Origin: Candidatus Binatia bacterium
GTDB taxonomy: Bacteria > Desulfobacterota > Binatia > UBA12015
DNA: 64,000 bases
Direction of reading: 5' to 3'
Assembly (NCBI GenBank): GCA_965658895.1
Contig: CBFHUR010000006.1
Span: 50,131 to 114,130 of the forward strand
The position numbers and the translations under genes are program-made. Of this stretch, positions 22,047-55,606 are shown in pieces; position 1 is the stretch's first letter, and every line of letters begins with the position of its first letter. Below the pieces are notes generated by a model that was given only the letters and a program-made list of their open reading frames with translations, had not been told where the DNA came from and did not search any database.

Positions 22047-22739
22047 GTGCAAGTCCCGGAGGCGTCTGGATCGGCTCCGGCACAATTTTCTGCTAGGTCT
22101 GCGAACATGTCGGAGGCGAATACTCGTCTGGATCAGAAGCTGCGGGAGAGGGTGGAGCACCACCTGGCCGGGCTGCAGCGCCGGGAGCTACCTGCTTCGG
22201 GCCTGCGACGGGCGGCGGTAGCCATTGTATTGGTTGCCGGAGATCAGGGCCAACCGGCGTTTCTTCTCACCCGGCGCGCCTCGGGTCTGGCAGACCATCC
22301 CGGTCAATTTGCCCTGCCCGGTGGTCGGATCGAACCCGGAGAGACCGCCTCGCAGGCCGCGTTGCGCGAGACCGCCGAGGAGGTGGGGCTTGTCGTGGCT
22401 GCCGATGATATTCTCGGCCAGCTGGATGACTACCAGACCCGTTCCGGATTCGTGCTGACGCCGTATGTCGCCTGGGGAGGCAAGGCCCCGGGAGTTCATG
22501 CCAATCCCGAGGAGGTCGCCGTTGTGTACCGGGTGCCGCTGACCGATCTGGATGCCGATGCCATTCCTGTGTTGCGGAAGATTCCCGAGAGCGATCGTCC
22601 CGTGATCTCGCTGCCGCTCTGCGATACCCAGGTCCATGCCCCGACCGCCGCGGTTCTCTATCAATTTCGGGAGGTTGCCTTGCGGGGCTTGGCGACCCGT
22701 GTCGATGGCTTCGAGGAACCGGTTTGGGCATGGAAGTAG
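22047..22739 (+). CDS. Nudix hydrolase (CoA pyrophosphatase-like)
   Basis: Nudix box 'LPGGRIEPGETASQAALRETAEEVGL'. The start is uncertain, with an alternative at 22107. Confidence 0.7.
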   Translation: MQVPEASGSAPAQFSARSANMSEANTRLDQKLRERVEHHLAGLQRRELPASGLRRAAVAIVLVAGDQGQPAFLLTRRASGLADHPGQFALPGGRIEPGETASQAALRETAEEVGLVVAADDILGQLDDYQTRSGFVLTPYVAWGGKAPGVHANPEEVAVVYRVPLTDLDADAIPVLRKIPESDRPVISLPLCDTQVHAPTAAVLYQFREVALRGLATRVDGFEEPVWAWK

Positions 22740-22746
22740 TGATGGG

Positions 22747-23997
22747 ATGGGTCTGCAGATGGTTTTGAAACGCTTTGGGAGTTTCGTCTACCGCTGGGCT
22801 TGGCGATTTTATGAAGACGGCTGCCTGCTGCATGCGTCGGCTTTGGCGTATACAACGATGCTCTCGATCGTGCCCGTGCTGGCCCTGATGTTCGCGGCTC
22901 TCAAGGGGCTGGGTGTGGAGTCCGAACTCGAAGAGCTTCTCCTGGAGCGCTTGTCGCTCAGTCAGGAGGTCGTCACGCAGATCACGGCCTTCGTGGCGCG
23001 TGCCAATGTCGGGACTCTGGGGACGATGGGTGCGGTGGCGCTTTTTGGTTCGGCGCTCTCGGTTCTGGGGAGCGTCGAATCGAGTTTTAACCATATCTGG
23101 CGAGTCCGTGCCGGGAGGCCTCTCCTGCGCAAGATCACCGATTACGTGGCTGTCATCATTCTCGCGCCTTTTTTGATGGTGGCCGCAACGGGAGTGACCT
23201 CGTTTGTCCTGCAGCAGGATCTCATGCATGAGGCGCTCGCGCAGCCGGTCCTCGGTGAGGCGTGGCAGCAGCTGCTGCCGCTGATTCCCTACATTTGTAA
23301 TGTGATCGCTGTCGGTGTCCTCTATCTGGTGATGCCGAATCGGCGACCGAGCCCCCGAGCGCTATTCGTCTCGGCCGTGTTCGCGGGAATCGCCTGGCAG
23401 CTTGTGCAGATCGCCTACGTGCGTCTTCAGGTAGGCGTGGCCAACTATAACGCGATCTACGGTGCCCTGGCGCAACTTCCTGTGACGCTTGTGTGGATGT
23501 ACGTGAGCTGGGCTATCGTCCTGGCGGGTGCGGAGCTCGCTGCTTTTATGGAACTCGGCGGCGCCGAGGGGCGGGGGCGTCGCGTGAGCCGTCGTCCGTT
23601 GGCCCTGGCATTTCTGGTGGAAGCGGGTCGGCGCCAACGACTGGGGGAAGGTCCCACGGATCCGGGAAGAGTGAGTCGGCAACTGGGTGTCGACCGCGTC
23701 GATGTTTGTGAGTCCGTGGAACTACTGGAGAAAAATGGACTCGTTCTGCCTGTCGAAGGGTCAAATGGGAAGTATCTGCTGGCGCGAGACCCGGCCGCCG
23801 TCTCGCTGGCCGAGGTCTTCGTGATTTTTGCTGAAGATGGAAAACCGCTGTTCCTCGATGGTGCGATCTCCGAGGAGCTGGCACGCGAAGCCGCCGAGAG
23901 CGAGGCCTCGCTTGCCTCTCATACATTGGCCGAACTGGTGGACTCTCAGATATCGGGTGTCGAGACAGCCGAGAAGACCGATAGCGCCGCCGAGTAG
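22747..23997 (+). CDS. YihY/BrkB family inner-membrane protein with C-terminal extension
   Basis: 'ASALAYTTMLSIVPVLAL...GTMGAVALF...NHIW' is typical of YihY (RNase BN-like). A C-terminal acidic/wHTH-like tail of about 130 aa follows. ATG at 22747. Confidence 0.7.
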   Translation: MGLQMVLKRFGSFVYRWAWRFYEDGCLLHASALAYTTMLSIVPVLALMFAALKGLGVESELEELLLERLSLSQEVVTQITAFVARANVGTLGTMGAVALFGSALSVLGSVESSFNHIWRVRAGRPLLRKITDYVAVIILAPFLMVAATGVTSFVLQQDLMHEALAQPVLGEAWQQLLPLIPYICNVIAVGVLYLVMPNRRPSPRALFVSAVFAGIAWQLVQIAYVRLQVGVANYNAIYGALAQLPVTLVWMYVSWAIVLAGAELAAFMELGGAEGRGRRVSRRPLALAFLVEAGRRQRLGEGPTDPGRVSRQLGVDRVDVCESVELLEKNGLVLPVEGSNGKYLLARDPAAVSLAEVFVIFAEDGKPLFLDGAISEELAREAAESEASLASHTLAELVDSQISGVETAEKTDSAAE

Positions 23998-25800: not shown

Positions 25801-27069
25801 ATGGACGCCTTGTTCGATTTTCGGCAGGCCGGTTGCCGGGTGCGGCGCTTGCCACGGAGGCCTCTGTTCCGTACCCAACGATCGGTGAAGTGGTGTTCGG
25901 CACTTTCGACCGATGACGATATCGTGAGCGCGACGCGTTCGGTCGTCGATACGGTCCACGCGGGGATGGGGCCTCAGGAGCCAAATCTGGTGCTTTTGTT
26001 CGTTTCGGATGGCCACGCCGAGCACTACGGGGAGGTCGCTGCTCTGGTGGGCGGGGAATTCCCGGCGGCGCTGATCATCGGCTGCACTGCGCGCGGCGTG
26101 ATTGGCGGAGGTCTCGAGATCGAGTCCTCGGGGGCCTTGCCGGGAGTAACCTTGAACCCCTTTCATCTCGATGCTGAGGAATTGCCCGAGGCGGAACGGG
26201 CGTCGGCATTCTGGTCGCAGCGTTTTGGCGGGCTGGTGGGCGAGGATCCATGTTTCCTCGTGTTGGCGGATCCGTTCTCGATGGACGTGGAATCGATGGT
26301 GCGTGGCCTCGAAGCCGCCTTTCCCGGTGCGCCCGCGATCGGAGGTCTGGCAAGCGGGGGCGGGGCTCCTGGTGAGAATGCCTTGTATATTGGCAGCGAT
26401 GTGCACCGCAGTGGTGCTGTAGGCATCGCGCTCTCGGGCAATATCCTGCTCGAGACCGTCGTTGCGCAAGGATGCCGCCCGGTTGGTCTCCCGATGTTCG
26501 TGACGCGCGCGCGAGAAAATATTCTGTTCGAGCTTGATGGAAGGCCCGCGCTGCAGGTCGCCAATGAAGTCATCGAGAGCCTTTGCGAGAGTGATCAGAT
26601 GGCCGCGCATCAGGCGCTCCTGCTGGGTTTGGGTATGGGGGACGGTCAAGGGCCGTTCGGTCAGGGGGATTTCCTCATGCGGAACCTCGTTGGCAAGGAC
26701 GAGCCGTCGGGGTCCCTTCTGGTCGGAGCGATGCTCGATGAAAAGCAGGTCGTGCAATTCCAGCTTCGAGATGCGACCGCGGCGCGCGAGGAGCTTCAGG
26801 CTTCGCTGTCGCAGGTCGGCGGCGGTTTTGCGGGCGCAGTCCTTCTGTCTTGCCTCGGCCGCGGTGAGGGTCTCTACGGCTGCGCAAACCATGATTCGGA
26901 TCAGGTGCGCGCTCGCTGCGGAGAGATCCCGGTGGCGGGTTTCTTTGCGGAAGGGGAGGTCGGTCCGGTGGGTGGAGAAACCTTCGTCCACGGCTACACG
27001 AGTGTGATCGGATTGTTTCGGAGCCGAGACTCCGAAACGGCCTCAGTTGAGGTAACCGAGGGCTCTTAG
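25801..27069 (+). CDS. FIST (N+C) domain sensory protein
   Basis: 'SALSTDDDIVSATRSVVDTV...NLVLLFVSDGH' matches the FIST-N start and 'AGFFAEGEVGP' matches FIST-C. The start may be GTG at 25885. Confidence 0.65.
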   Translation: MDALFDFRQAGCRVRRLPRRPLFRTQRSVKWCSALSTDDDIVSATRSVVDTVHAGMGPQEPNLVLLFVSDGHAEHYGEVAALVGGEFPAALIIGCTARGVIGGGLEIESSGALPGVTLNPFHLDAEELPEAERASAFWSQRFGGLVGEDPCFLVLADPFSMDVESMVRGLEAAFPGAPAIGGLASGGGAPGENALYIGSDVHRSGAVGIALSGNILLETVVAQGCRPVGLPMFVTRARENILFELDGRPALQVANEVIESLCESDQMAAHQALLLGLGMGDGQGPFGQGDFLMRNLVGKDEPSGSLLVGAMLDEKQVVQFQLRDATAAREELQASLSQVGGGFAGAVLLSCLGRGEGLYGCANHDSDQVRARCGEIPVAGFFAEGEVGPVGGETFVHGYTSVIGLFRSRDSETASVEVTEGS

Positions 27070-29100
27070 GGACTCCTCCATCCGTTGCGGGATGGCTTGA
27101 TCGTCCATCGAGTTGCCACGGTCCTTGCCGGTGAGGTCTTCTCGAATCTTGGCGCTTTCCCTCCGGTGGGCCTCGATGATTGCCTGGCGGTCGGGTGGCA
27201 GCGTGGGCTGCTTGATCGTGTGCCATTCGAACGGGTCGGTCTCGAGCGGGTAGTTGCGGGTCTCCTCGTCGGAGTAGATCGATTTCCAGCTCTGGTTCCG
27301 CGCGCCAAGAGCTCCTTTTTGATGCCACGAGAAATAGATCTCACGGTTGGGTGCGATCGCCGTGCCGAACATCGCGTCGCGGAGGCTCCGGCCCTGGCCT
27401 TGCGGGAGTCCGGGAAGTTGCAGAAGCTCCAGCAAGGTTGGAGCAACGTCGGTCAAGCTGGCACTGCCGGCAACCTCGACTCCCTCCGGAATGCCCGGCC
27501 CGCGCAGGATCAGCGGAATCCGGAGTTGTTCGTCGTGGAAGGCGAACCCGTGCCCGGGCAAGCTATGTTCGCCAAAGGATTCGCCGTGATCGGAGAGCAA
27601 GATGACCAATGTGTTCTTGCTGAGTCCCGTCTTGTCCAGTGTGTCGAGAATCTGCTCGACCAGAGAATCCGCCTCGCGGATCGTCCGATCATAGCGATCG
27701 ACATGCTTCTGTTGGGGGTCGGGGACGTAGGGGAGCGGACCGCCGTTTTTCCAGTGGTTGTCGTTGCGGAACATTGCATCGAACTCGGGGCTGGAATCAT
27801 AGGGGTCATGGGTTTGGTAGGTATGAAGAAACAAAAAGAATTGCTGATCGACGTTTTTTTTCAGGTACTCTTCCGCCCGGGCGAAACTCACGGGTCCCAG
27901 CTTTTCGCTGACGACGGATTGCTCGGTAAACGCGTCAAAGCCGCGCCAGAAACCGAAGAGACCCGAGACCAGCGCATTTTCGGTGATGGCATCGGTTTGA
28001 TAGCCGGCGGCCTGGAGGCTCTCGGCCAGCGTGGTTACCGGGGAACCGGGTCGCAGGCGTCCGCGGACTGGCTGGGCATCGGGGTAGAGTCCGGTGAAGA
28101 GCGAGAGGTGGGAGACGTCAGTTTGCGGGAAGGTGCTGAAGACGTCGAGGAACGTTGTGCCCTCATCCATCAGGCGGTCATCAATCGCCGGTGTGGTCTG
28201 GCGTGGGTAGCCGTACCCCGACATATGATCGGCGCGCAAGGTGTCAAGGCAGATCAGCAGTACGTTGGGTTGCCGCACCTGCTGGAGCGAGCGGGTCCTG
28301 ACTTCGGGCCATGCCCAAAGACCGCGCGTTGAGGGCTGGCCGTCCGGATCGGTGACGCGCAGAGAAAGCTCGCATTGCTCGCCGCCTTGCGGGACGGCGA
28401 CCCGAGCGGATCGCCAGCCGGTGCCTGGCTCGGTATCGACGCGTCCCTCACCGAGAAGTGCGGTGCCTGGCCGTCCATCGCAGGCGAGATCGGCCTGGTA
28501 GCGCAGGGGCGGATCGGGCACGGCCCCCGCCGTGGGCGTAGAGCCAAAGTGGAATTGCAGTTCGGATTGCGCGGGGATCGCAAATCCATAGCTCCGGAGT
28601 TCGCTGGGGGCCGGTGTGGTCAGGAAGAGGCGCGCATTCATGAGCCCTTCCGCGCCGCGACCGCGTTCGTCTCGGATGATCACTCGGTAGCCATCCTGGT
28701 CTGGCTCGATACTCCAACCCTTTTCGATACGACGCCAGAAAACTTTATCCTGCAGCCCCTTGGCGATGTTATTGTCGCTGCTGGCCAGACCGGCAGCGAA
28801 GGTCTGGATGCTGAGATTGGCGCGCCGGATGTCGTCGGGTGCGATCTGGATGGAAAATTGCGCGACGCCGTCCTCGAGGGGGATGCCGATCTGTTCGGTA
28901 TGGAGTTCTTCGCCGACCAGGCCGAGCACCGGGCGGGCGGTGGCTCCGATGATGGATCGGGCAATTGGTTGGTCCGGGTCCATCCCGAACTGTTCGGGTC
29001 CGAGTCGCTGTTCGACTTGCCACCCCGGCGGGGGCTGGCTGCAACTGGCGATCAGAGACGCCAGCGTCAGGAGTCCAATGGTGCGAATCACGGTGGCCAT
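27043..29100 (-). CDS. sulfatase-superfamily (alkaline-phosphatase-like) lipoprotein, Thr-type; N-terminal ~300-aa domain of unknown function
   Basis: The lipobox 'LASLIASC' follows the Met at 29100 (CAT 29098-29100). Sulfatase-family motifs 'LLICLDTLRADHMSGYG' and 'LLSDHGESFGEH' are present. Thr, not Cys/Ser-x-P-x-R, sits at the formylglycine position ('TDVSHLSLFTG'). The protein ends in 'LRALGYLN'. Confidence 0.75.
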   Translation of the reverse strand: MATVIRTIGLLTLASLIASCSQPPPGWQVEQRLGPEQFGMDPDQPIARSIIGATARPVLGLVGEELHTEQIGIPLEDGVAQFSIQIAPDDIRRANLSIQTFAAGLASSDNNIAKGLQDKVFWRRIEKGWSIEPDQDGYRVIIRDERGRGAEGLMNARLFLTTPAPSELRSYGFAIPAQSELQFHFGSTPTAGAVPDPPLRYQADLACDGRPGTALLGEGRVDTEPGTGWRSARVAVPQGGEQCELSLRVTDPDGQPSTRGLWAWPEVRTRSLQQVRQPNVLLICLDTLRADHMSGYGYPRQTTPAIDDRLMDEGTTFLDVFSTFPQTDVSHLSLFTGLYPDAQPVRGRLRPGSPVTTLAESLQAAGYQTDAITENALVSGLFGFWRGFDAFTEQSVVSEKLGPVSFARAEEYLKKNVDQQFFLFLHTYQTHDPYDSSPEFDAMFRNDNHWKNGGPLPYVPDPQQKHVDRYDRTIREADSLVEQILDTLDKTGLSKNTLVILLSDHGESFGEHSLPGHGFAFHDEQLRIPLILRGPGIPEGVEVAGSASLTDVAPTLLELLQLPGLPQGQGRSLRDAMFGTAIAPNREIYFSWHQKGALGARNQSWKSIYSDEETRNYPLETDPFEWHTIKQPTLPPDRQAIIEAHRRESAKIREDLTGKDRGNSMDDQAIPQRMEESLRALGYLN

Positions 29101-29110
29101 GTTCGGGGTC

Positions 29111-29920
29111 TCACGGTCGCAGGTAGAGGGTAGCTGCCGAAACACGTGTCTCCTCGCGGTTGCTTTCGAGTCTGAATTGCAGCTCGGATTCGTCGGCTTT
29201 TTGCTCGATGGCGCGGAAGGAAAGTTGTTCACCAGGACCGCTGAAGGCACGAATCTTTACGCCACGGAGCTCTCGGATCTCGGGCAGCGAGCCGTCGGGT
29301 CGAGCATAGGCCTTTCGAGTCGCATCGATCTGAGTCTGCAGCAGCAAGGTGGCTGGAAAGACCGGTTGGCGGGGAAAGTGATCTCCATAGATGATAGACT
29401 CCTCGGGAAGACGAAAGCTGCCCGCGAGGCCCTTTCCGGATTCGCCGGGCTCAAGCAGGATGGTGGGTTGGTAGTCTGCCGGCTCGATGGCCCGGCGGGG
29501 TGCGATCCCGTCGGCGCATAGTTCCTCGAAGAGCCGTTTCACGCGGTTCTTGTCGTCGAATTCTTCCATCGGCAGCAGGGGGCCGATCGCACGTTGCAGC
29601 GAGAGACAGGGGGTCCCCTCGCTACTGGCGATTCCGTGATAGGAGATTGCTTGACGCCTGATGGCGGTGATCGTCACCTGGATCTCCAGAGGTGCTCCGG
29701 GTGCCGGTACCCGCAGGACTTCCACGAGGCCGGCAGAGGCCGCTACCGGGCGATGATCGAATTCGAGTTCCGGAATTGTTGCCCAGGAGGCGAGTTGGCC
29801 TACGGCCTCGACCAGCAGGCCGAGAGGCAGTGCCTCGGCGCCAGCTCCTGGCTGGAGGACCCCCGTGGCTTGCTCTCCTGGTCGGATCGAGAGGATTTGA
29901 TCAATCAGTTGGAAAGACAT
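29111..29920 (-). CDS. double hotdog-fold protein, FabA/FabZ-like dehydratase
   Basis: The C-terminal half 'DHFPRQPVFPATLLLQTQIDA' resembles the FabZ active-site motif (HFPxxPVxPGxL). The N-terminal half has a second degenerate hotdog repeat. It lies immediately upstream of the sulfatase-like lipoprotein on the same strand. Confidence 0.5.
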   Translation of the reverse strand: MSFQLIDQILSIRPGEQATGVLQPGAGAEALPLGLLVEAVGQLASWATIPELEFDHRPVAASAGLVEVLRVPAPGAPLEIQVTITAIRRQAISYHGIASSEGTPCLSLQRAIGPLLPMEEFDDKNRVKRLFEELCADGIAPRRAIEPADYQPTILLEPGESGKGLAGSFRLPEESIIYGDHFPRQPVFPATLLLQTQIDATRKAYARPDGSLPEIRELRGVKIRAFSGPGEQLSFRAIEQKADESELQFRLESNREETRVSAATLYLRP

Positions 29921-30009
29921 TTCTACAAGCCCGAAAATGCTTTACCATAAAGTGTGATGCTTTTCCGATCGGGACCTGGATGCGGCTCGTCGGAAACATT
30001 CATTCGCAT

Positions 30010-32013
30010 ATGAAATCGAACAAGAACCGACGGATTCCCTGTTTTATTCTCGCTCTGGCGCTGCTGTCCCTGCCGCAGCTTGCGCAAGCGGGCGACGAAC
30101 TCGACCGGCGGGTGAAGGCGACCGGTTCGGTGCGTGTGATGGTACGGTTGGCGCTACCTGAGGCACCAGCCATGGCGTCTGCTGCAGACCGCGCGAAGGA
30201 CCGTCGCGAGCGGATCGCCCGCGCCAGCAACCGCGTGGCATCTCCCCTCCGGAAACAGCGGGCGGGTGGTGTCGTGCGCCGCTTCTCGGAGGTTCCCTGG
30301 GTCGCTGTCGAGGTGGATGCCAAAGGTCTCGCCGACCTTCGGGAATCGTCTCACGTCCAATCGATGAGGCTGGATCGCCGTGAACGGATTCAATTACGAG
30401 AGTCCTCGGAACTTGTGGGCGCTTCCACCGTGCATCGTCGCGGGGTCTCGGGTCAAGGTTGGTCCATCGGGATTCTGGACACCGGAGTTGAGGCCGCGCA
30501 TCCCTTTCTTGCAGGTCGCGTTCGGGGGGGTGCGTGCTTTTCGGCTGATGCCAGTTGCCCGAACGGCCAGACGACCATGATCGGGCCCGGCGCCGGCGAG
30601 CCCTGTGATTTCGGGGAGAGTTCCTGTGGTCACGGGACCCACGTTGCCGGAATCGCAGCGGGGCAGGGAGTCTCAATTGCAGGAATGGCTCCGGCGGCCG
30701 AAATCATCCCCGTCCAGATCTTCACCGAGTTCACCGGCGAGGATTGCGAGGATATGGATGAGGACCCCTGTGCGCTGGCCTACCTCTCCGACATCACCAG
30801 CGGGCTTGAGTATCTCTACTCGATTCGCAACGAGGTTCGGATCGCTGCGATCAACCTCAGCATCGGGGGCGACCTCTATTCCTCTGTGTCGGAGTGCGAG
30901 GCCGCAGATCCGCGGACCGAGATTGTCGGGTTGTTGCGCGCTGCAGGGATCGCCGTGGTCGCCGCGGCCGGCAATGAGAGTTCGACCGATTCCCTGACCA
31001 CGCCGGGATGCCTCTCGGATGTCATCAGTGTCTCGTCGACCAATGACGTGGACGAGATCTCGTCGTTTTCGAACACAGCCGAATTTCTGGACTTCTTTGC
31101 GCCGGGGGCTCAGATCGTCTCATCGGTGCCCTTTGGGAACTATTCGAGCATCTGGGGTTCTTCACAAGCAGCACCCCATGTGGCGGGTGCCTATGCGTTA
31201 TTATTCGAAGCCCTCGGTCAGTCGTCGCTCGAGCTGAGCAGCGAGATGCTGCGTGCTTCGGGTGAACCGATCCCGGTGAGGAATCTGCGTCGGGATATTC
31301 CCCGGCTCCAGGTTGATCGGGCTCTCGACCTGCTGGAACTGGATCGCCGCGGTACCGGTCTGCAGCAGACACCCGACGGTGAGCGGATCTTGCTGAGCAA
31401 GGATCTGGCCGGCGAGCGGTGGGCCATCGTGTTGAATCTGGGTGATGGTTCGGTTTCGGGTAACGTCTTTCTGGAAGATGGCAGTGACCCGGCCTTTGTC
31501 TCCTGCGTCGCCTCCGGGGAGGCGTCGCGGAATGGGTATCTGTCTTTCGCGTGTTCGGGAGCCTCGCAGTGTCGGTCGGGTTGCCAGCCCGAGGATTGGA
31601 CGTCGCTCGGGTCGGTGACCTTACCCGAGTCCTTCTTTTCGCCGCGACCGCGGTATCCCCTGCCGGAACCGTTGGTGCAACCGGGCGGGCGCGCTTCGGA
31701 CTCGCAGGCGGGTGTCCGCGAAATTCCAGGTCAGGATCGCGTTCTGGTCAGCAAGGATGCTGGCGGGAAGCGCTGGGCGATTGCCTGGAACGAGGACGGA
31801 ACGGTCACGGGTAATGTCTATGATCCGGAGGGAGGTGCTCCACAATTTGTCTGGTGTTCCGACCTGGGGAACGATGGGAATCCTGACCTCGCGGCGCGAA
31901 TCTTCCGATTCCGCTGCGCGGGTTCCGATCCATGCTTTGAGGGTTCCTGTCGCGCGGAGAACTGGACGGACCTCGGCGCGGTCGAGTTGCCGGGATCCTT
32001 TTTTCAGCCCTGA
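30010..32013 (+). CDS. secreted subtilisin-like serine protease (peptidase S8) with two C-terminal tandem repeat domains
   Basis: Signal peptide 'MKSNKNRRIPCFILALALLSLPQLAQA'. S8 catalytic triad motifs 'GILDTGV' (Asp), 'CGHGTHVAG' (His) and 'GSSQAAPHVAGA' (Ser). ATG at 30010. Confidence 0.85.
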   Translation: MKSNKNRRIPCFILALALLSLPQLAQAGDELDRRVKATGSVRVMVRLALPEAPAMASAADRAKDRRERIARASNRVASPLRKQRAGGVVRRFSEVPWVAVEVDAKGLADLRESSHVQSMRLDRRERIQLRESSELVGASTVHRRGVSGQGWSIGILDTGVEAAHPFLAGRVRGGACFSADASCPNGQTTMIGPGAGEPCDFGESSCGHGTHVAGIAAGQGVSIAGMAPAAEIIPVQIFTEFTGEDCEDMDEDPCALAYLSDITSGLEYLYSIRNEVRIAAINLSIGGDLYSSVSECEAADPRTEIVGLLRAAGIAVVAAAGNESSTDSLTTPGCLSDVISVSSTNDVDEISSFSNTAEFLDFFAPGAQIVSSVPFGNYSSIWGSSQAAPHVAGAYALLFEALGQSSLELSSEMLRASGEPIPVRNLRRDIPRLQVDRALDLLELDRRGTGLQQTPDGERILLSKDLAGERWAIVLNLGDGSVSGNVFLEDGSDPAFVSCVASGEASRNGYLSFACSGASQCRSGCQPEDWTSLGSVTLPESFFSPRPRYPLPEPLVQPGGRASDSQAGVREIPGQDRVLVSKDAGGKRWAIAWNEDGTVTGNVYDPEGGAPQFVWCSDLGNDGNPDLAARIFRFRCAGSDPCFEGSCRAENWTDLGAVELPGSFFQP

Positions 32014-39987: not shown

Positions 39988-42900
39988 ATGATCATGCTGC
40001 TCCAGTTTCTGGCCATCGTTGTGATGATGGTGCTCACCAGCCGCCTGGCGGTCGAACCTCTCAAGGGTCGCTTGATGAATATCTTCAAGCTCCTGCTGAC
40101 CGTGGGCATGGTCTACCATTTGTTGTTCTGGCCTGTCAGCGATGGGGCCGGTGGTACCGTGCCGGCATGGGATCTGATGTTGGAGCTGCTGCGCAACATC
40201 GACCCCGTCGTCTTCTGGACGTTTGCGGGGATCGGTGCCGGGGTTCGATTTCTGGGAGTTTTGGCCTCGATGTATCGCTGGCGATTGGTGCTGCGGGGCC
40301 AGAAGATCGAACTTCCCTTCTGGCATATCCTCGGAGCCTTCCTGATCGGTCGTGCGATCGGATTTTTCCTGCCCAGCACGGCAGGACTCGATGGATACAA
40401 ACTTTATGATGCGGCCCGATTCAGCGGCCGCACGGTTGAAGTCACGGCGGGCACGGTGCTCGAAAAGGTTCTGGGTATCACCGGGATTTTCCTCACCTAT
40501 CTGGTGGCTCTTCCCTTCGGGATGTCGATTTTTGGTGAGAATGCGGTCACGGTCGCGCTGATCACAGTGCCTTTGGCGATTGCGATCATCGGTGGTCTGC
40601 TGACTCTGCTCTGGTTCCCCGGCGTGATCCAGTGGGTCATCGAGACGGTGCCTATTCCGGCAAAAGCTCAGATTGAAGGCCTGGTCCTGCGCACTTCGGC
40701 GGCCGCGGCTGCTTATCGCGACCAGAAAATGCTCGTTCTGGGGATGCTGGTGATGAGCTTTCTCTCGCATTTCTTCACCGCGGCCATGTACTTTTTCATG
40801 GCGATTGCCGTTGGTGCCGGGGCAGATGCCGTATTTTGGCCCGTCGTCTTCGGCTCCTCGATCCAGATCTTCGCGACCGTTCTTGGCCCGACCATTGGTG
40901 GCATCGGCGTGCGCGAGGCCGCCCAGGTTCTTACCCTGGGCGCTCTGCTCGGGCCGATCGTGGCGGCGGTTTCGGCGACGCTCGGATTCTGGGTGGGCGA
41001 AGTACCGACCCTCTTCGGATTCCTCTTCTGGATGGTTCGGGGTCCTGATTACCGGCCGAGTTATTGCCGTGTAGACGGCAAGCAAGTTGACTACGAAGAA
41101 ACGGCCAAGATGGCCATGGAGCTCGAGACCGAAGAGGAACGCCAGGCACGCGAGGACCGCCAGGCGGCAGGCGATGTGGTTTCCGCCGCCGTTCTGGAGC
41201 AACCGACCCGACTGTTTGTGTCCAGCGGGCTTGGATTGGGTGCCGGGGTACTCTCGGGAATCTTGATCGGCACGATCGAGGCTATGGTGATTGGTGCTGG
41301 AGGCTTCGGACCGGAATCACAGGTCTTGTGGTACGGCCCGCTGCTTTACGCGGCTTTGCTCGGTGGCCTGGGGCTGCTGGGCGGCGCGGTCCTCAGCATC
41401 CTGCCGATGCAGGAGTCCGAGGTCCGTGGTTGGGTGCCGACTCTCGGCTTTGCCGCAACGCTGGTGCCGCTCGGGCTGGCGATCGTTGTCTTTCGGTTGA
41501 AGCGAGACGTCTATCTCGAGCAAATGCCTCCCCTTCCCGTGCTGCTCGGTGTGGTGGCTGGCGCGGGCGTGTTGGCGCTTGTGATTTTGATGTTCGGGCG
41601 ACGGTTTTTCCAATCCGGCGCCGGACGCATCGCGCGTCCGCTGCCGGCTTTGTCGCTCTTGCTGGTCGTGATGGCGGCCGGGGCGCTGTTGGGTCCGCGG
41701 GAACCGGCGGTTGTGGTGGAAGCCCGCACCGAGGTGCCGGCGCATCTGAGGGACCGCCCGAACGTGGTCCTGGTCATCGCCGATACGCTGCGGGCGGACC
41801 ATCTGGGCTCCTATGGGGATCCTCGTGGCCTGACGCCGAACCTGGATGCCATGGCGGATGAGGGCACTGTCTGGGAAGCCTTCGGGCAATCGTCGTGGAC
41901 CAAGCCGTCGGTAGCGACCATCCTGACCTCGCTCTACGCATCGACGCATGGTGCGATGAGCAAACCTTCGATCTTGCCGGAAGTCACAACCGTGGCGGAC
42001 GCCTTGCAGGCGGAGGGCTACGCGACGTCGGGTTTTGTTTCGAATGTCAATCTGGCGCCTTCGTTCAATTTCCAGCAGGGATTTGATGAATACACCTACT
42101 ATGCGCCCGACTATTTATTTGAGGCCGAGGAGTCTTCGTCGAAGCTGATTCTCTACCAGATCCTGCGGCCGCTCTATTTCAAGGTCATGGGCTCGCAATG
42201 GGTGGAGTTGTTCTACCAGGACTCGCGCACGGTGAATGCCGATGCTCTTCCCTGGCTCGAACGGCATAAGGACGATCGGTTCTTTGCCTTGCTGCATTAT
42301 ATGGACCCGCATGACCCTTATTTTGCCCACCCCTACGACGGACGCGGAATCGCAAGGGTCGAGAACCAGAACCCCGACCCGGAACAAGCCGCCGAGATGC
42401 TCGAGCTCTATGCGGGTGAGATTCAGTACATGGACGAGAGTTTCGGAGATTTGATTGCCACGCTCAAGGAGCATGACATCTACGATGATACGCTGATCGT
42501 CTTTACGGCCGACCATGGCGAAGAGTTTCAGGAGCACGGTGGCTGGTGGCATGGGACGACTCTTTACGAGGAGCAGGTTGCGGTTCCGTTGATCGCCAAG
42601 TTCCCGGCGGGGTCGCTGGTGCCTGCGCGGCCTCAGGGAGTTGGTCGTTTGCTGGATATCGCCCCGACGATTCTGGCCGCTTCCGGAACCGCGATTCCGC
42701 GCGAGTGGCAGGGTGCTGATCTGGCGTTGCCGATCCCCTCTCATCGCGTGGCGTTTGCCGAGGAGGACCATGAGGGCAATATCATTACGGCCGCCCGCAA
42801 TGCGCGCCTCAAGCTGATTCGAGCCAATGCAGGAAATCCCCGGGGGCTTCCGGAGCTGGAACTATTTGATCTGCAACGGGACCCCGGTGAACAGGAAAAT

Positions 42901-43056
42901 GTGGCCCCCGATCGCCCTGTGGAGGTCGAGGATCTGGATCGCGAGGTCGTCTCGATCACGACGGGTGCTGCTCAGGAAGCAGTGGCAAACGACGGCGAGG
43001 TCGAGATGGATGATGCCACCCGGGACCGACTGCGCGCGCTCGGCTATATCGAATAG
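39988..43056 (+). CDS. fusion protein: MprF-type flippase-like (lysylphosphatidylglycerol-synthase TM region/UPF0104) domain + multi-TM linker + Thr-type sulfatase-superfamily (LtaS/EptA/OpgB-like) domain
   Basis: Residues ~1-330 carry 'YRWRLVL', 'GLDGYKLY' and 'GGIGVREAA', characteristic of the LPG_synthase_TM/flippase-like family. Residues ~390-580 form a second TM block. The C-terminal ~440 aa carry 'VVLVIADTLRADHLGSYG', 'SSWTKPSVATILTSLYAS' (Thr at the nucleophile position) and 'VFTADHGEEFQEHG', and end in 'LRALGYIE'. Confidence 0.7.
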   Translation: MIMLLQFLAIVVMMVLTSRLAVEPLKGRLMNIFKLLLTVGMVYHLLFWPVSDGAGGTVPAWDLMLELLRNIDPVVFWTFAGIGAGVRFLGVLASMYRWRLVLRGQKIELPFWHILGAFLIGRAIGFFLPSTAGLDGYKLYDAARFSGRTVEVTAGTVLEKVLGITGIFLTYLVALPFGMSIFGENAVTVALITVPLAIAIIGGLLTLLWFPGVIQWVIETVPIPAKAQIEGLVLRTSAAAAAYRDQKMLVLGMLVMSFLSHFFTAAMYFFMAIAVGAGADAVFWPVVFGSSIQIFATVLGPTIGGIGVREAAQVLTLGALLGPIVAAVSATLGFWVGEVPTLFGFLFWMVRGPDYRPSYCRVDGKQVDYEETAKMAMELETEEERQAREDRQAAGDVVSAAVLEQPTRLFVSSGLGLGAGVLSGILIGTIEAMVIGAGGFGPESQVLWYGPLLYAALLGGLGLLGGAVLSILPMQESEVRGWVPTLGFAATLVPLGLAIVVFRLKRDVYLEQMPPLPVLLGVVAGAGVLALVILMFGRRFFQSGAGRIARPLPALSLLLVVMAAGALLGPREPAVVVEARTEVPAHLRDRPNVVLVIADTLRADHLGSYGDPRGLTPNLDAMADEGTVWEAFGQSSWTKPSVATILTSLYASTHGAMSKPSILPEVTTVADALQAEGYATSGFVSNVNLAPSFNFQQGFDEYTYYAPDYLFEAEESSSKLILYQILRPLYFKVMGSQWVELFYQDSRTVNADALPWLERHKDDRFFALLHYMDPHDPYFAHPYDGRGIARVENQNPDPEQAAEMLELYAGEIQYMDESFGDLIATLKEHDIYDDTLIVFTADHGEEFQEHGGWWHGTTLYEEQVAVPLIAKFPAGSLVPARPQGVGRLLDIAPTILAASGTAIPREWQGADLALPIPSHRVAFAEEDHEGNIITAARNARLKLIRANAGNPRGLPELELFDLQRDPGEQENVAPDRPVEVEDLDREVVSITTGAAQEAVANDGEVEMDDATRDRLRALGYIE

Positions 43057-43117: not shown

Positions 43118-45319
43118 GTGGCGGTGCGTTCGTCCACTGTCCTAGCCGTTCTGCTCTTTGCGGCGTCGGCGACCTTCATGCTTCGCGAAGTGCTGCCGGC
43201 CCCGGCCTCGCTTCTGCAGACGTCCGTGCAGACGCACGATTCCGAGGGGGGTGGGGCCGAGTGGGAACTTCTCGGGCAGTTCGACCAGCAGATGGTCGTT
43301 GCCCTCGTCGCGCGCAATGCGGATCTTCTTCTCTCGGATCCCGCCGGATTGTTCGGCGTGGGCCAGTGTTTTCCCTTTCCCGCATCTTTTACGCTGGGTG
43401 AACATGCTTTCGTTGAGGGGGCGATGGCGGCGCTTCCGCTGGCACTGACCGGGGAGCCCATCCTGGCCTACAACTTCATGCTTTGGGTTGGCTATGTCCT
43501 CGCCGGCTTCAGCATGTTTCTGCTGGTTCGTCACTTCACGGGCAGCGTCGCCGCGGGCATCCTCGCCGGCTTTCTTCTGCAATGGTTCCCCAGTCGTATC
43601 ATCGATGGCGGCCACCCGTTCCTGCACACGGAATTCTGGCTGGTCTTCGCCCTGCTGTTTCTCCACCGCCTTTTTGTTTTGGGACAAATCCGATCGATGT
43701 TCGGCGTGGCTTTCTTTCTGGGGATGCAGGCCCTCGGCAGCTTCTATCTGATTCTCGCAGTGATTCCGGTGGTGCTGATCTACGTGGTTTTTCTGGTCTG
43801 GACCCATCCCCGCTACCGCCTCCGGGCTCTGGCTCTCACGATGGTCGCCGGCCTGTGGGTGGCGGCGGTCGGTTTGATGGTTCTGATGCCGTATCTCCAG
43901 ACCCGGCAAGAGTGGTCGCTTCTGGGCGGACGCGAGGGGATTCTCTTGCCCTTCAGTGTCTTTTTGCCGGGCTCGAGCTCGTTTCCCGGGTGGGTGTATG
44001 CCTTGCTTTTCCTGATCGGCGCGGGCGACCGGCTTCGGGGGCGTCGTGGTTCCAGGGGGGAAGATCCGCGCGCGCCGTTTCTGGTGGCGACTTTGCTGGT
44101 CCTGGTCTGCGCGACTTCCGGAATCGAGGTGCCGGGAACCTCGATTCACCTCGACTCTCCCTGGAGCTATCTGACGGGCATTGTCCCCGGTCTCGATGCG
44201 GTCCGGGCGCCGGGGATCATGGCCAATATCATGTGGGTTCCGGCCACGGTCGTGGCCGGGTACGGGGCGCTGGTCGTCTTTGAGGTTCTCGGTCGTCGGG
44301 CCGAGCATTGGGCCTTGGCGGGCCTGGTGCTCGCCGTCGCATTGATCCGATTTGTGCCGGTCCTCTCGGAGTTCACCTATGGGGGCAGCCTGGGTGTGGA
44401 GGCGCGTGACGCGCGCCCCGGGCAAGCCGATGTTGCGTTGATCCGGGCAGCTTCTCCAGGTGCTGTCATCCACGTGCCGATGGCCAAGGAGGGCCCGGCA
44501 TCCACGGGCGGGAATGCGAGCTTGCAACTCCTGCTCGGCAGCTTCTCGCCCAGTCCCTCGACCAGTTGCTACAACTCGTTTTTGTCACCCTATGCATCTC
44601 AGCTTGGTCAATTGGGGAGTCGCCTTCCGACCATGGAATCGCTGGAGGCGTTGGGCGCGATCGGGATCGACACGATCGTTGTCCACAAACTTGGGTCGGG
44701 TGGGGCGCCCCTCATGGGTAATTTTCTCGATTGGTTTCGCGCACAGATCGAGGAGTCCGCCGAGTTGCAGTCCCGGCTGAAGCTGGTGGGTGAGACAGAT
44801 CGTTTGCTGGTCTATTCGTTGACGCCGCGGGGGCTGGCAAGCTCTCGTGAGTCCGCCCTCCACCGTGGCGTAGCGTGGGGAGAGCCCTGGCGGGAAGGCG
44901 AGTCGACCACGGTGCGTTTCTGGACGCGTAATCGGTCAAGTATGGTCTTTCGGGATGCCGAACCCCGAGGGTATCGCGAGGGTGCTGTCCTCTGGGTGAA
45001 TGAGGACGGTGACGCCATCTCGCGGTCGCCGGTTCGCTTTCTGATGCCGCTGGCGCTGGCTCCGGGCGGCAGGATTGGTCTCGATATCGAGGTCGAGCCG
45101 CCTCCGAGTGACGGAACCCTCCTGGGATATCTGAGCCCCGCCGGGAAGCGCTGGAATGGGATGGCACTCGCTCGGGTTTGGCGAGAGCAGCCCTCGGCGT
45201 CTGCGGCGGGCTCCACGTCCGAGGGAACGGTCGGGCTCGAGGAGAGCTCCGAGGCCGTGGAAGTCTCCGAGCCCGAGGAAAGCTCCGGCGCCGATGCCGA
45301 GCGCGGCGCCGGGAGTTGA
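43118..45319 (+). CDS. large polytopic membrane protein with C-terminal soluble domain (GT-C-like / YfhO-like glycosyltransferase candidate)
   Basis: 733 aa from a GTG start. About 11 predicted TM helices span residues ~1-400, followed by a ~300-aa non-membrane domain and a Ser/Glu-rich acidic tail. The GT-C assignment is topology-based inference only. Confidence 0.45.
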   Translation: MAVRSSTVLAVLLFAASATFMLREVLPAPASLLQTSVQTHDSEGGGAEWELLGQFDQQMVVALVARNADLLLSDPAGLFGVGQCFPFPASFTLGEHAFVEGAMAALPLALTGEPILAYNFMLWVGYVLAGFSMFLLVRHFTGSVAAGILAGFLLQWFPSRIIDGGHPFLHTEFWLVFALLFLHRLFVLGQIRSMFGVAFFLGMQALGSFYLILAVIPVVLIYVVFLVWTHPRYRLRALALTMVAGLWVAAVGLMVLMPYLQTRQEWSLLGGREGILLPFSVFLPGSSSFPGWVYALLFLIGAGDRLRGRRGSRGEDPRAPFLVATLLVLVCATSGIEVPGTSIHLDSPWSYLTGIVPGLDAVRAPGIMANIMWVPATVVAGYGALVVFEVLGRRAEHWALAGLVLAVALIRFVPVLSEFTYGGSLGVEARDARPGQADVALIRAASPGAVIHVPMAKEGPASTGGNASLQLLLGSFSPSPSTSCYNSFLSPYASQLGQLGSRLPTMESLEALGAIGIDTIVVHKLGSGGAPLMGNFLDWFRAQIEESAELQSRLKLVGETDRLLVYSLTPRGLASSRESALHRGVAWGEPWREGESTTVRFWTRNRSSMVFRDAEPRGYREGAVLWVNEDGDAISRSPVRFLMPLALAPGGRIGLDIEVEPPPSDGTLLGYLSPAGKRWNGMALARVWREQPSASAAGSTSEGTVGLEESSEAVEVSEPEESSGADAERGAGS

Positions 45320-54328: not shown

Positions 54329-55606
54329 ATGATTCCTGTTTTGTTCTCGATTGGGCCGTTTTCGATCCACACCTTTGGTGCGATGCTGGCGCTCGCCTTT
54401 CTGGCCGCCTCGGCGGTGTTGGTGCGAAATCTGGAGCGGCGTGGCCTGAACGGCGAATGGGCCGGTCCGATTACGTGGTCGGCCGTGATCGGTGGGTTGG
54501 TCGGCGCGCGATTGCTTTCGGTGATCAATAACTGGCAGCAATTCCTCGCCGATCCAGTGGGGCAGTTATTGACCGGCGCGGGTTTTGTCTTTTTCGGGGG
54601 ACTCCTCGGTGGTCTGGTGGCCGTCTCGTTCTGGGTCTATCGCAATGGCGTTTCGTGGTGGTTGATCGCTGACGCCGTGGCTCCGGCGGTGATTATGGGC
54701 CAGGCGATAGGGCGCATCGGCTGTCAGTTGGCCGGCGATGGAGATTGGGGCACGCCCACCGAGCTGCCGTGGGGCATGGCATACCCGGCCGCGATCTTCG
54801 GATGGGTTCATGCTCCGGGAGTTCTGGTTCACCCCGCGCCGGTTTACGAGAGTTTGTTGTACTCGGGAATCTTTGTCGCCTTGATGCAAATGTATCGCAT
54901 GCCGGAACGTTGGCGGCCCGGGGCAGTGTTGTTTGCTTTTCTGGCACTCTCCGGCCTCGCGCGCTTTGCTGTAGAAATCGTGAGAATCGAACCAAGGATC
55001 TTCCTCGGAGGTACCGAGGCCCAGTGGATCGGCGCGGTCATGGTTGTGGTCGGCCTGGTCGGTCTGGCCTACGTTCAGGGCCGTCGCGGATTGCGTTCGG
55101 CGTTGGGTGTGGTGCTTCTCGCGCTGATGACGACTTCTTGCGTAACCGGTCCGCCGACCGCACCCGATGTCCGGGCCCAGCATCTGGACGGCAAGTCCTT
55201 CCGCCTGTCGGCTCAGCGCGGGAAAGTTGTATTGCTCAATATCTTCACTACCTGGTGTCCTCCCTGCCGGGAGGAGATGCCGTCGATGCAGCGACTTGCC
55301 GACGAACTTGCCGATGAAGATTTCCTGATCGTGGGGGTGGCCGAGGACGATGGAGGGGCTCCGGTGGTCAAGGAGTTCGGGGACGAACTCGGCGTTCGAT
55401 TTCCTCTGCTGACCGAACCTTCCGGTACAGTTGGGCAGACCTACAAGATCTCCGGATATCCCGAGACCTTCATCATCGATCGGCAGGGGAAGCAGTTGGC
55501 AAGGATTATCGGGCCTCTCGAATGGGATGATCCGGTCCTGGTAGCGGACCTTCGGCACCTGATCCGAACCGGGGAATGGCGTCGCGGACCGGATGGTCGA
55601 CCCTAG
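54329..55606 (+). CDS. lgt: prolipoprotein diacylglyceryl transferase fused to C-terminal TlpA-like thioredoxin domain
   Basis: The N-terminal ~270 aa are Lgt ('GPFSIHTFGAMLALAF', 'GRIGCQLAGDGDWG', 'HPAPVYESLLY'). The C-terminal ~150 aa hold 'VVLLNIFTTWCPPCREEMPSM...GYPETFIIDRQG', a TlpA/ResA fold with a WCPPC active site. Confidence 0.8.
   Translation: MIPVLFSIGPFSIHTFGAMLALAFLAASAVLVRNLERRGLNGEWAGPITWSAVIGGLVGARLLSVINNWQQFLADPVGQLLTGAGFVFFGGLLGGLVAVSFWVYRNGVSWWLIADAVAPAVIMGQAIGRIGCQLAGDGDWGTPTELPWGMAYPAAIFGWVHAPGVLVHPAPVYESLLYSGIFVALMQMYRMPERWRPGAVLFAFLALSGLARFAVEIVRIEPRIFLGGTEAQWIGAVMVVVGLVGLAYVQGRRGLRSALGVVLLALMTTSCVTGPPTAPDVRAQHLDGKSFRLSAQRGKVVLLNIFTTWCPPCREEMPSMQRLADELADEDFLIVGVAEDDGGAPVVKEFGDELGVRFPLLTEPSGTVGQTYKISGYPETFIIDRQGKQLARIIGPLEWDDPVLVADLRHLIRTGEWRRGPDGRP

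Follow-up and report, generated by a model that had tools for sequence, protein, structure and literature searches.

Two adjacent genes on the minus strand of a 64,000-nucleotide stretch of contig CBFHUR010000006.1 (hereafter the window), from the genome of an uncultured, probably marine Binatia bacterium, encode a double-hotdog protein (29111..29920; an open reading frame of 269 amino acids with an ApeI-like N-terminal half and a FabA/FabZ-like C-terminal half) and a sulfatase-fold lipoprotein with Thr in place of the formylglycine nucleophile (27043..29100; 685 amino acids plus the stop codon). The explanation of the pair that we favour, with somewhat better than even confidence, is a unit of two independent genes, one for a dehydratase with a composite active site and the other for a phosphoesterase or phosphotransferase acting through Thr327. 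The two products of this same-strand unit are most likely functionally independent, and both genes belong to large families without a characterised close relative. Named homologues of 65% identity and below place the DNA in the Binatia. Our analysis covered the architecture, fold, conservation, family distribution and synteny of the two genes, and from these we infer their chemistry, their substrates, a pairing of His181 with Glu38 in the hotdog protein and the localisation of the products. Where they bear on the results, we refer to the claims of an earlier reading of this DNA made from its letters alone (the sequence-only reading).

A sulfatase scaffold with a threonine at the nucleophile position

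The catalytic domain of the lipoprotein (residues 278 to ~660; 27121..28269, minus strand) has, by Pfam and Foldseek, the two-subdomain architecture of the S1 sulfatases. The Pfam Sulfatase family (PF00884) matches residues 278-561 with an E-value of 8.6e-55, while the match to SGSH_C (PF16347) falls below threshold (22.2 bits against a cut-off of 29.3). The AlphaFold2 (AF2) model (predicted local distance difference test, pLDDT, 92.7; predicted template modelling score, pTM, 0.93) consists of a beta-dominated N-terminal region followed by the sulfatase fold, and the top 50 Foldseek matches to it are exclusively S1 formylglycine sulfatases or phosphonate monoester hydrolases, with target-normalised template modelling (TM) scores of 0.57-0.70.

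With the S1 formylglycine sulfatases (SulfAtlas S1; carrageenan, choline and aryl sulfatases) the lipoprotein shares the PF00884 core, the first metal Asp and the D-H pair. The segment D286-T-L-R-A-D-H (28225..28245, minus strand), in which D286 would be the first metal ligand, aligns with D-D-M-R-F-D of the solved S1 sulfatase 6pt6; D286-T287 lies opposite the D-D metal pair of that enzyme, with Thr287 replacing the second Asp. D286, T287, L288 and R289 are all invariant in an alignment of 73 full-length homologues (26-65% identity), on which the residue conservation given for this protein is based. Unlike the S1 enzymes, the lipoprotein has no C/S-x-P/A-x-R formylglycine motif in the alignment to 6pt6. 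Opposite C84(S)-S-P-S-R it reads T327-D-V-S-H331 (28108..28122, minus strand), with Thr327 as the putative nucleophile in place of Cys/Ser and His331 standing in for the motif Arg, and both residues are invariant. A further segment, S-D504-H505-G-E-S-F-G-E-H-S-L-P-G-H517 (27550..27591, minus strand), holds predicted metal ligands and a conserved His; H426, H431, D504, H505 and H517 are likewise invariant.

Because Thr327 occupies the place of the formylglycine Cys/Ser, the lipoprotein would have a sulfatase scaffold without sulfatase chemistry. The authors of SulfAtlas have pointed out that none of the Thr-bearing PF00884 proteins is characterised or able to generate formylglycine, and that the name sulfatase should not be given to them (PMC5066984). 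The invariant D286, T327, D504 and H505, together with H331, H426, H431 and H517, resemble instead the active-site residues of Thr-nucleophile enzymes of the alkaline-phosphatase superfamily (NPP, EptA/MCR-1, LtaS). Features in common with EptA/MCR-1, LtaS, OpgB and NPP-type enzymes are the Thr at the nucleophile position, the D...T...D-H metal set and an S-D-H-G-E...H-G segment, the last of which resembles the SDHGE...HG of phosphoethanolamine transferases; T-x-x-S-H...T-G-L-Y-P is similarly like the NPP nucleophile motif T-F-P-N-H...T-G-L-Y-P. NCBIfam phosphoethanolamine-transferase models do match residues 463-532 (P_eth_NH2_trans, E-value 1.1e-13), but far under their cut-offs, the transferase models scoring 20-50 bits against cut-offs of 404-1250. 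Differences from EptA/MCR-1, LtaS and OpgB, in addition to these scores 10 to 50 times under the family cut-offs, are that the lipoprotein keeps the sulfatase C-terminal subdomain and has no multi-pass membrane domain (a second protein of the window, discussed below, has a different one, LPG_synthase_TM).

By analogy with these enzymes, the lipoprotein is probably a metal-dependent phosphoesterase or phosphotransferase. Thr327, assisted by metal, would attack a phosphoester, and the resulting covalent phospho-Thr327 intermediate would then be resolved by water (in a phosphoesterase) or by an acceptor (in a transferase). The substrate would probably be a periplasmic or envelope phospho-compound.

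Export signal, N-terminal region and C-terminal tail

The lipoprotein begins MATVIRTIGLLTLASLIASC, a signal peptide that ends in the lipobox L-I-A-S-C20 (29041..29100, minus strand, from the translation). The lipobox satisfies the pattern [LVI][ASTVI][GAS]C, and its Cys20 is kept in at least 90% of the 73 aligned homologues. The protein is therefore a predicted lipid-anchored enzyme of the periplasm. Elsewhere in the window (54329..55606, plus strand) lies an lgt gene, a 425-amino-acid open reading frame that combines Lgt (prolipoprotein diacylglyceryl transferase, PF01790) with a thioredoxin-fold domain of the AhpC/TSA type.

Between the lipobox and the catalytic domain lies an all-beta region (residues 21-270, about 250 amino acids; 28291..29040, minus strand) which, by DSSP assignment on the model, is made of strands almost throughout, with three short helices. 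A Pfam scan and a PDB profile search found no sequence match for residues 21 to ~270, in agreement with the sequence-only reading, which had described a domain without recognisable motifs and had made it, at ~300 amino acids, somewhat too long. The region is rare: when 1.84 billion representative clusters were searched exhaustively with phmmer, it turned up in only 23, in all of which it leads sulfatase-like proteins of 650-730 amino acids or their fragments, and the same search found no relative outside this sulfatase-like architecture. Its last ~100 residues are commoner, profile matches from other phyla starting near position 165-200. Two tryptophans, W229 and W262, and a Cys207/Cys243 pair show little or no variation, and the conservation of the Cys pair fits an exported protein. 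The region probably positions the enzyme or binds its substrate.

At the other end of the protein, lies the tail L678-R-A-L-G-Y-L-N-COOH (27046..27069, minus strand); in the AF2 model residues 672-680 form a short helix (pLDDT ~85). L678, L681, G682 and Y683 are invariant among the 73 homologues, on a par with the catalytic residues. A search for the motif in homologues, as the sequence-only reading had proposed, found L-x-x-L-G-Y in 118 of 120, with one or two residues after G-Y in 113 (usually [LIV][EDQ]); a literature search on the LRALGY motif returned nothing relevant. Like the lipobox and the 250-residue beta region, the tail lies beyond the alignments to solved sulfatases. Always at the very C-terminus, L-x-x-L-G-Y-[LIV]-[EDQ] is a hallmark of the Thr-type family.

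The flippase-fusion protein and the wider Thr-type family

The window encodes one other PF00884 protein (E-value 9e-48), a fusion of 1022 amino acids (39988..43056, plus strand) that joins a flippase-like LPG_synthase_TM domain (PF03706, E-value 1.1e-13) to a Thr-type sulfatase-fold domain. A motif scan places its Thr638 codon at 41899..41901, within T-K-P-S-V, and its C-terminal tail, LRALGYIE, at 43030..43053 (both plus strand). Scanned in six frames, the window contains DTLRADH only at 28245 (minus strand) and 41782 (plus strand), LRALGY only at 27069 (minus) and 43030 (plus), TDVSHLSLF once, at 28122 (minus), and TKPSVATILT once, at 41899 (plus).

These motifs, and the HFPxxPVxP of the hotdog protein, were all listed in the sequence-only reading and are found where it had placed them. 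We also agree with it that both proteins are of the Thr type, with T-D-V-S-H and T-K-P-S-V instead of a formylglycine motif, and that one is a lipoprotein, by its lipobox Cys20, and the other carries a flippase-like membrane domain in the same chain. Over 476 aligned columns the two sulfatase-like regions share 29% identity (141 bits, E-value 8e-39), far more than chance would give, whereas solved arylsulfatases score 69 bits or less, so the two are indeed closer to each other than to those enzymes. The further claim, that they form a lineage-specific pair of paralogues, fails, and we reject it. In a family scan using one genome per species, which found at least 514 loci encoding relatives, the best 80 were examined; these come from Binatia, Acidobacteriota/Thermoanaerobaculia, Aminicenantes, Planctomycetota, Myxococcota, KSB1, Gemmatimonadota and others, D-T-L-R-x-D occurs in nearly all of them together with the tail and a nucleophile motif of the Thr type, and multiple copies are found at many of the loci. 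Against at least 25 proteins of other phyla the catalytic domain of the fusion reaches 180-228 bits, and the lipoprotein domain reaches 186-250 bits against other-phyla proteins; since these scores exceed the 141 bits between the two window proteins, the pair is not lineage-specific. The two also belong to different motif subgroups, the lipoprotein to T-x-x-S-H, the majority type, and the fusion to T-x-P-S-V/L, which recurs in Bryobacterales, Planctomycetota and Thermoanaerobaculia. From these sequence comparisons we take the lipoprotein and the fusion to be two distant members of one large multi-phylum family.

Directly downstream of the fusion gene (43118..45319, plus strand) lies a gene for a multi-pass membrane protein of 733 amino acids, which matches nothing in Pfam and ends in a large soluble portion, and the two genes may form an envelope-modification operon. 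A more far-reaching proposal, which we put forward as speculation and consider quite unlikely, is that the family marked by T-x-x-S-H (or T-x-P-S-V) and the terminal tail, found in many phyla and often at multicopy loci, constitutes a hitherto unrecognised group of phospho-transfer enzymes of the periplasm that use the sulfatase scaffold. The tail would then be functional, as a docking or recognition peptide or as a lid of the active site, and the Binatia lipoprotein might act with the double-hotdog protein on a specialised envelope lipid.

A dehydratase-like double-hotdog protein with a proposed composite active site

The AF2 model of the hotdog protein is a double hotdog (pLDDT 91, pTM 0.90), with which fold searches agree, and the protein has no signal peptide. 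Its C-terminal half carries a His loop, D180-H181-F-P-R-Q-P-V-F-P-A, which fits the pattern H-x-x-x-x-P-x-x-P, and the two-hotdog architecture with a FabZ-like motif put forward in the sequence-only reading is thereby borne out. The His181 codon (29378..29380, minus strand) falls in the FabZ His motif D-H-F-P-R-x-P-V-F-P, aligned with HFPGKPIFPG of FabZ. Across 123 family members H181, E38 and Q42 are invariant (123/123), and the motifs D180-H181-F-P-R-x-P-x-x-P and E38-A-x-G-Q42 vary little or not at all. The second motif, Glu38-Ala-Val-Gly-Gln42 (29795..29809, minus strand), belongs to the central helix of the hotdog in the N-terminal half, where Glu38 would supply the catalytic acid.

At the position of the C-terminal half that is usually Asp in FabA and Glu in FabZ, the window protein has Gln195 (codon 29336..29338, minus strand). 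Asp is found here in 110 of 111 non-Binatia relatives and also at six Binatia loci (L008, L091, L010, L013, L020 and L092), Gln in the closest subclade of the window protein and Gly in L007. Aligned by hhalign, a weak match of 40% probability, the two halves place E38 opposite Q195, and the N-terminal half has no His loop. In FabZ, FabA and polyketide synthase dehydratases the catalytic His and acid come from different hotdogs, so the functional dyad in the window protein would be His181 with Glu38. By this analogy we infer a single, intact composite active site made of His181 of the C-terminal half and Glu38 of the N-terminal half. Of the catalytic His and Asp expected by the sequence-only reading, His181 is present, the usual C-terminal-half position is taken by Gln195, and the available acid, Glu38, is in the N-terminal half. 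That Gln195 renders the hotdog inactive was considered and rejected as the principal interpretation, the partner-hotdog acid Glu38 being invariant and six Binatia loci keeping Asp195.

The protein would accordingly be a cytoplasmic, single-chain counterpart of an ApeI:ApeP-type or FabZ-dimer-type dehydratase, catalysing the dehydration or hydration of a 3-hydroxyacyl or enoyl thioester of acyl carrier protein (ACP) or CoA. It resembles FabZ/FabA and the ApeI:ApeP heterocomplex of aryl-polyene clusters (PDB 6qsr; background on the ApeI and ApeP dehydratases in PMC8253772) in its hotdog fold, with the His loop in one half and the E-x-x-x-Q helix in the other, and thus combines in a single chain of 269 amino acids what a FabZ dimer or an ApeI:P heterodimer distributes over two. 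It differs from them in scoring under the model cut-offs, in lying outside a cluster of ketosynthase (KS), ketoreductase (KR) and ACP genes, and in its Gln at the C-terminal-half acid position.

A single-sequence search returned 20 relatives and a profile search more than 2600, with PF22818 among the precomputed hits of the family. This larger family consists of fused ApeI-like + FabA double hotdogs of ~280 amino acids, to which the window protein is homologous over its full length with the same invariant residues: distant relatives annotated in this way (P0133-P0140) match 90-100% of the length at 32-37% identity, with phmmer E-values of 7e-38 to 1e-31. These distant relatives pass the Pfam FabA threshold and fill the dehydratase (DH) slot of KR-KR-ACP-DH-KS-KS-ACPS/acyltransferase clusters. 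Synthase clusters are confined to them, unlike the Binatia branch, which adjoins the S8 peptidase and lipoprotein genes instead and has a 4-residue deletion after the C-terminal-half helix. In the closest subclade of the window protein, a PF07977 hit is missing from the precomputed annotation.

Synteny in other Binatia and the probable independence of the two genes

In the sequence, 10 nucleotides (29101..29110, minus strand) separate the stop codon of the hotdog gene from the ATG of the lipoprotein gene, so that the adjacency described in the sequence-only reading stands and its spacing of 11 bp is corrected by one. Same-strand adjacency recurs at five independent related loci, with gaps of 7 nucleotides in L001/L002/L003, 18 in L007, 138 in L008, 32 in L091 and 10 in L094, and the adjacent pairs span 47-100% protein identity. 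At L010, L013, L020 and L092, the hotdog and lipoprotein homologues are kept apart by one or two genes of the opposite strand, which encode a conserved protein of 500-550 amino acids with or without a beta-eliminating lyase. The conserved inserted protein, absent from the window, has no recorded Pfam hit and is 37-61% identical among loci (L010, 6356..7861, and L092, 5021..6679, both minus strand; homologues in L011, L013 and L020). L011 keeps the lipoprotein and the inserted genes, with no hotdog gene detected within 10 kb upstream, and L093, a paralogous locus, lacks all the partners, with no hotdog gene within 7 kb. The adjacency of hotdog and lipoprotein genes is thus restricted to part of the Binatia. 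A scan of 26800..30300 by consensus alone found no promoter-like or minus-strand terminator-like sites and was uninformative.

Several points weigh against the favoured explanation, that of an independent dehydratase and phosphoesterase or phosphotransferase. The tight same-strand spacing, still seen at ~47-50% identity, leaves room for a functional link; the overall fold of the modelled lipoprotein is nearest that of true sulfatases, not phosphotransferases; neither subfamily has a characterised member, making the chemistry one of analogy; and the window hotdog scores under the cut-offs of the relevant models (PF07977, 17.4 against 23 bits; NCBIfam FabZ, 30.5 against 113). If the spacing does reflect a functional link, the two genes could form an operon acting on one lipid, the hotdog protein shaping the acyl tail in the cytoplasm and the lipoprotein, after flipping, transferring or removing a phospho head-group in the periplasm. 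This is in essence the lipid-tail and head-group pair of the sequence-only reading, and the 10-nucleotide gap, the adjacency over gaps of 7-138 nucleotides at five further loci down to 47% identity, the lipid-A-type acyltransferase/ACPS protein next to hotdog relatives, the likeness of the lipoprotein's active-site segment to lipid phosphoethanolamine transferases and the survival of the S8 peptidase/hotdog/sulfatase-like/FIST core through a change of flanks (L092) would all suit it. The pair is nevertheless split by opposite-strand genes at four loci and lacks its hotdog at L011 and L093, sequence searches found ~100 full-length lipoprotein homologues against ~12 hotdogs of the Binatia clade, the products would work in separate compartments (the hotdog protein in the cytoplasm, the lipoprotein exported), and the lipoprotein is without the membrane domain by which EptA- and LtaS-type enzymes reach their lipid donors. 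The pairing is therefore weakly supported, and we regard it as unlikely.

Three further readings are less likely still. The loss of the formylglycine motif, an extra N-terminal beta region that could serve as a binding module, and a weak NCBIfam YejM/LapC match (E-value 1.5e-10, residues 276-558) might be expected of a non-catalytic binding or regulatory pseudoenzyme comparable to PbgA/YejM, a protein with a fold of the same superfamily that senses or binds an envelope lipid, but the YejM score is 40 against a cut-off of 825 and D286, T327, D504, H505, H517, H426 and H431 are invariant throughout the 73 homologues, the pattern of an active enzyme, which makes this reading very improbable. Less probable still, to the point that we give it hardly any credence, is a genuine sulfatase using Thr, or another mechanism independent of formylglycine: its closest solved folds are all S1 sulfatases, its best sequence matches among solved structures are sulfatases and databases name it 'sulfatase', yet C/S-x-P-x-R is absent, Thr is not oxidisable to formylglycine, no Thr-type PF00884 sulfatase is known (PMC5066984), and the second Asp of the D-D pair and the motif Arg are replaced by Thr287 and His331. 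For the hotdog protein, a role as acyl-CoA/ACP thioesterase or inert scaffold would be hard to reconcile with its invariant dehydratase signatures (D-H-F-P-R-x-P-V-x-P and E-x-x-x-Q), with the superposition of FabZ on one half (1.7 A, 19% identity) and with relatives that pass the FabA threshold in the dehydratase slot of KS/KR/ACP clusters, and we think it very doubtful.

Annotation of Thr-type 'sulfatases'

The main use of these results is in the correction of annotation, for a large family of 'sulfatases', all of the Thr type and marked by the conserved tail at the C-terminus, appears to be mis-annotated. Hundreds of proteins in Binatia, Acidobacteriota, Planctomycetota and other phyla go under the name 'sulfatase' or 'arylsulfatase A-like' with Thr in place of formylglycine, and for this reason metabolic reconstructions should not include them among the sulfatases. 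The invariant Thr, the His-rich active-site residues and the terminal L-x-x-L-G-Y tail make a testable family signature, and the clarity of this signature together with a high-confidence model makes the family a tractable target in the search for a new activity of the alkaline-phosphatase superfamily. The hotdog protein, for its part, would be an example of an ApeI:ApeP-type heterodimeric dehydratase turned by fusion into a single polypeptide, its one active site being a composite of both halves. The results should surprise specialists little, and no long-standing question depends on them.

Neighbouring genes

The neighbours of the hotdog gene in the window are genes for an S8 peptidase, the sulfatase-like lipoprotein, a FIST protein and an acyl-CoA dehydrogenase. 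The S8 (subtilase) peptidase is a secreted protein (30010..32013, plus strand) encoded divergently from the hotdog gene across a spacer of 89 nucleotides; its C-terminus holds two tandem Cys-rich repeats of ~100 amino acids (residues 450-548 and 568-667; 44% identity, E-value 1.6e-25), and its gene adjoins the hotdog gene in every examined Binatia locus that reaches upstream of the latter. On the other side, a FIST/FIST_C sensor-domain protein (25801..27069, plus strand) is encoded convergently with the lipoprotein, the 3' ends of the two genes overlapping by 27 nucleotides. This convergent neighbour is kept at seven Binatia loci (L001/L002/L003, L008, L010, L091 and L092), including ones in which the hotdog-lipoprotein adjacency is broken, and the core order of divergent S8 peptidase, hotdog, lipoprotein and convergent FIST is maintained despite differing outer flanks (L092). 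At 22636..23997 (plus strand) the window encodes a membrane protein of the BrkB/YihY family that ends in an Rrf2-like winged-helix segment; at 29.5, its Rrf2 score lies just under the Pfam cut-off of 30.

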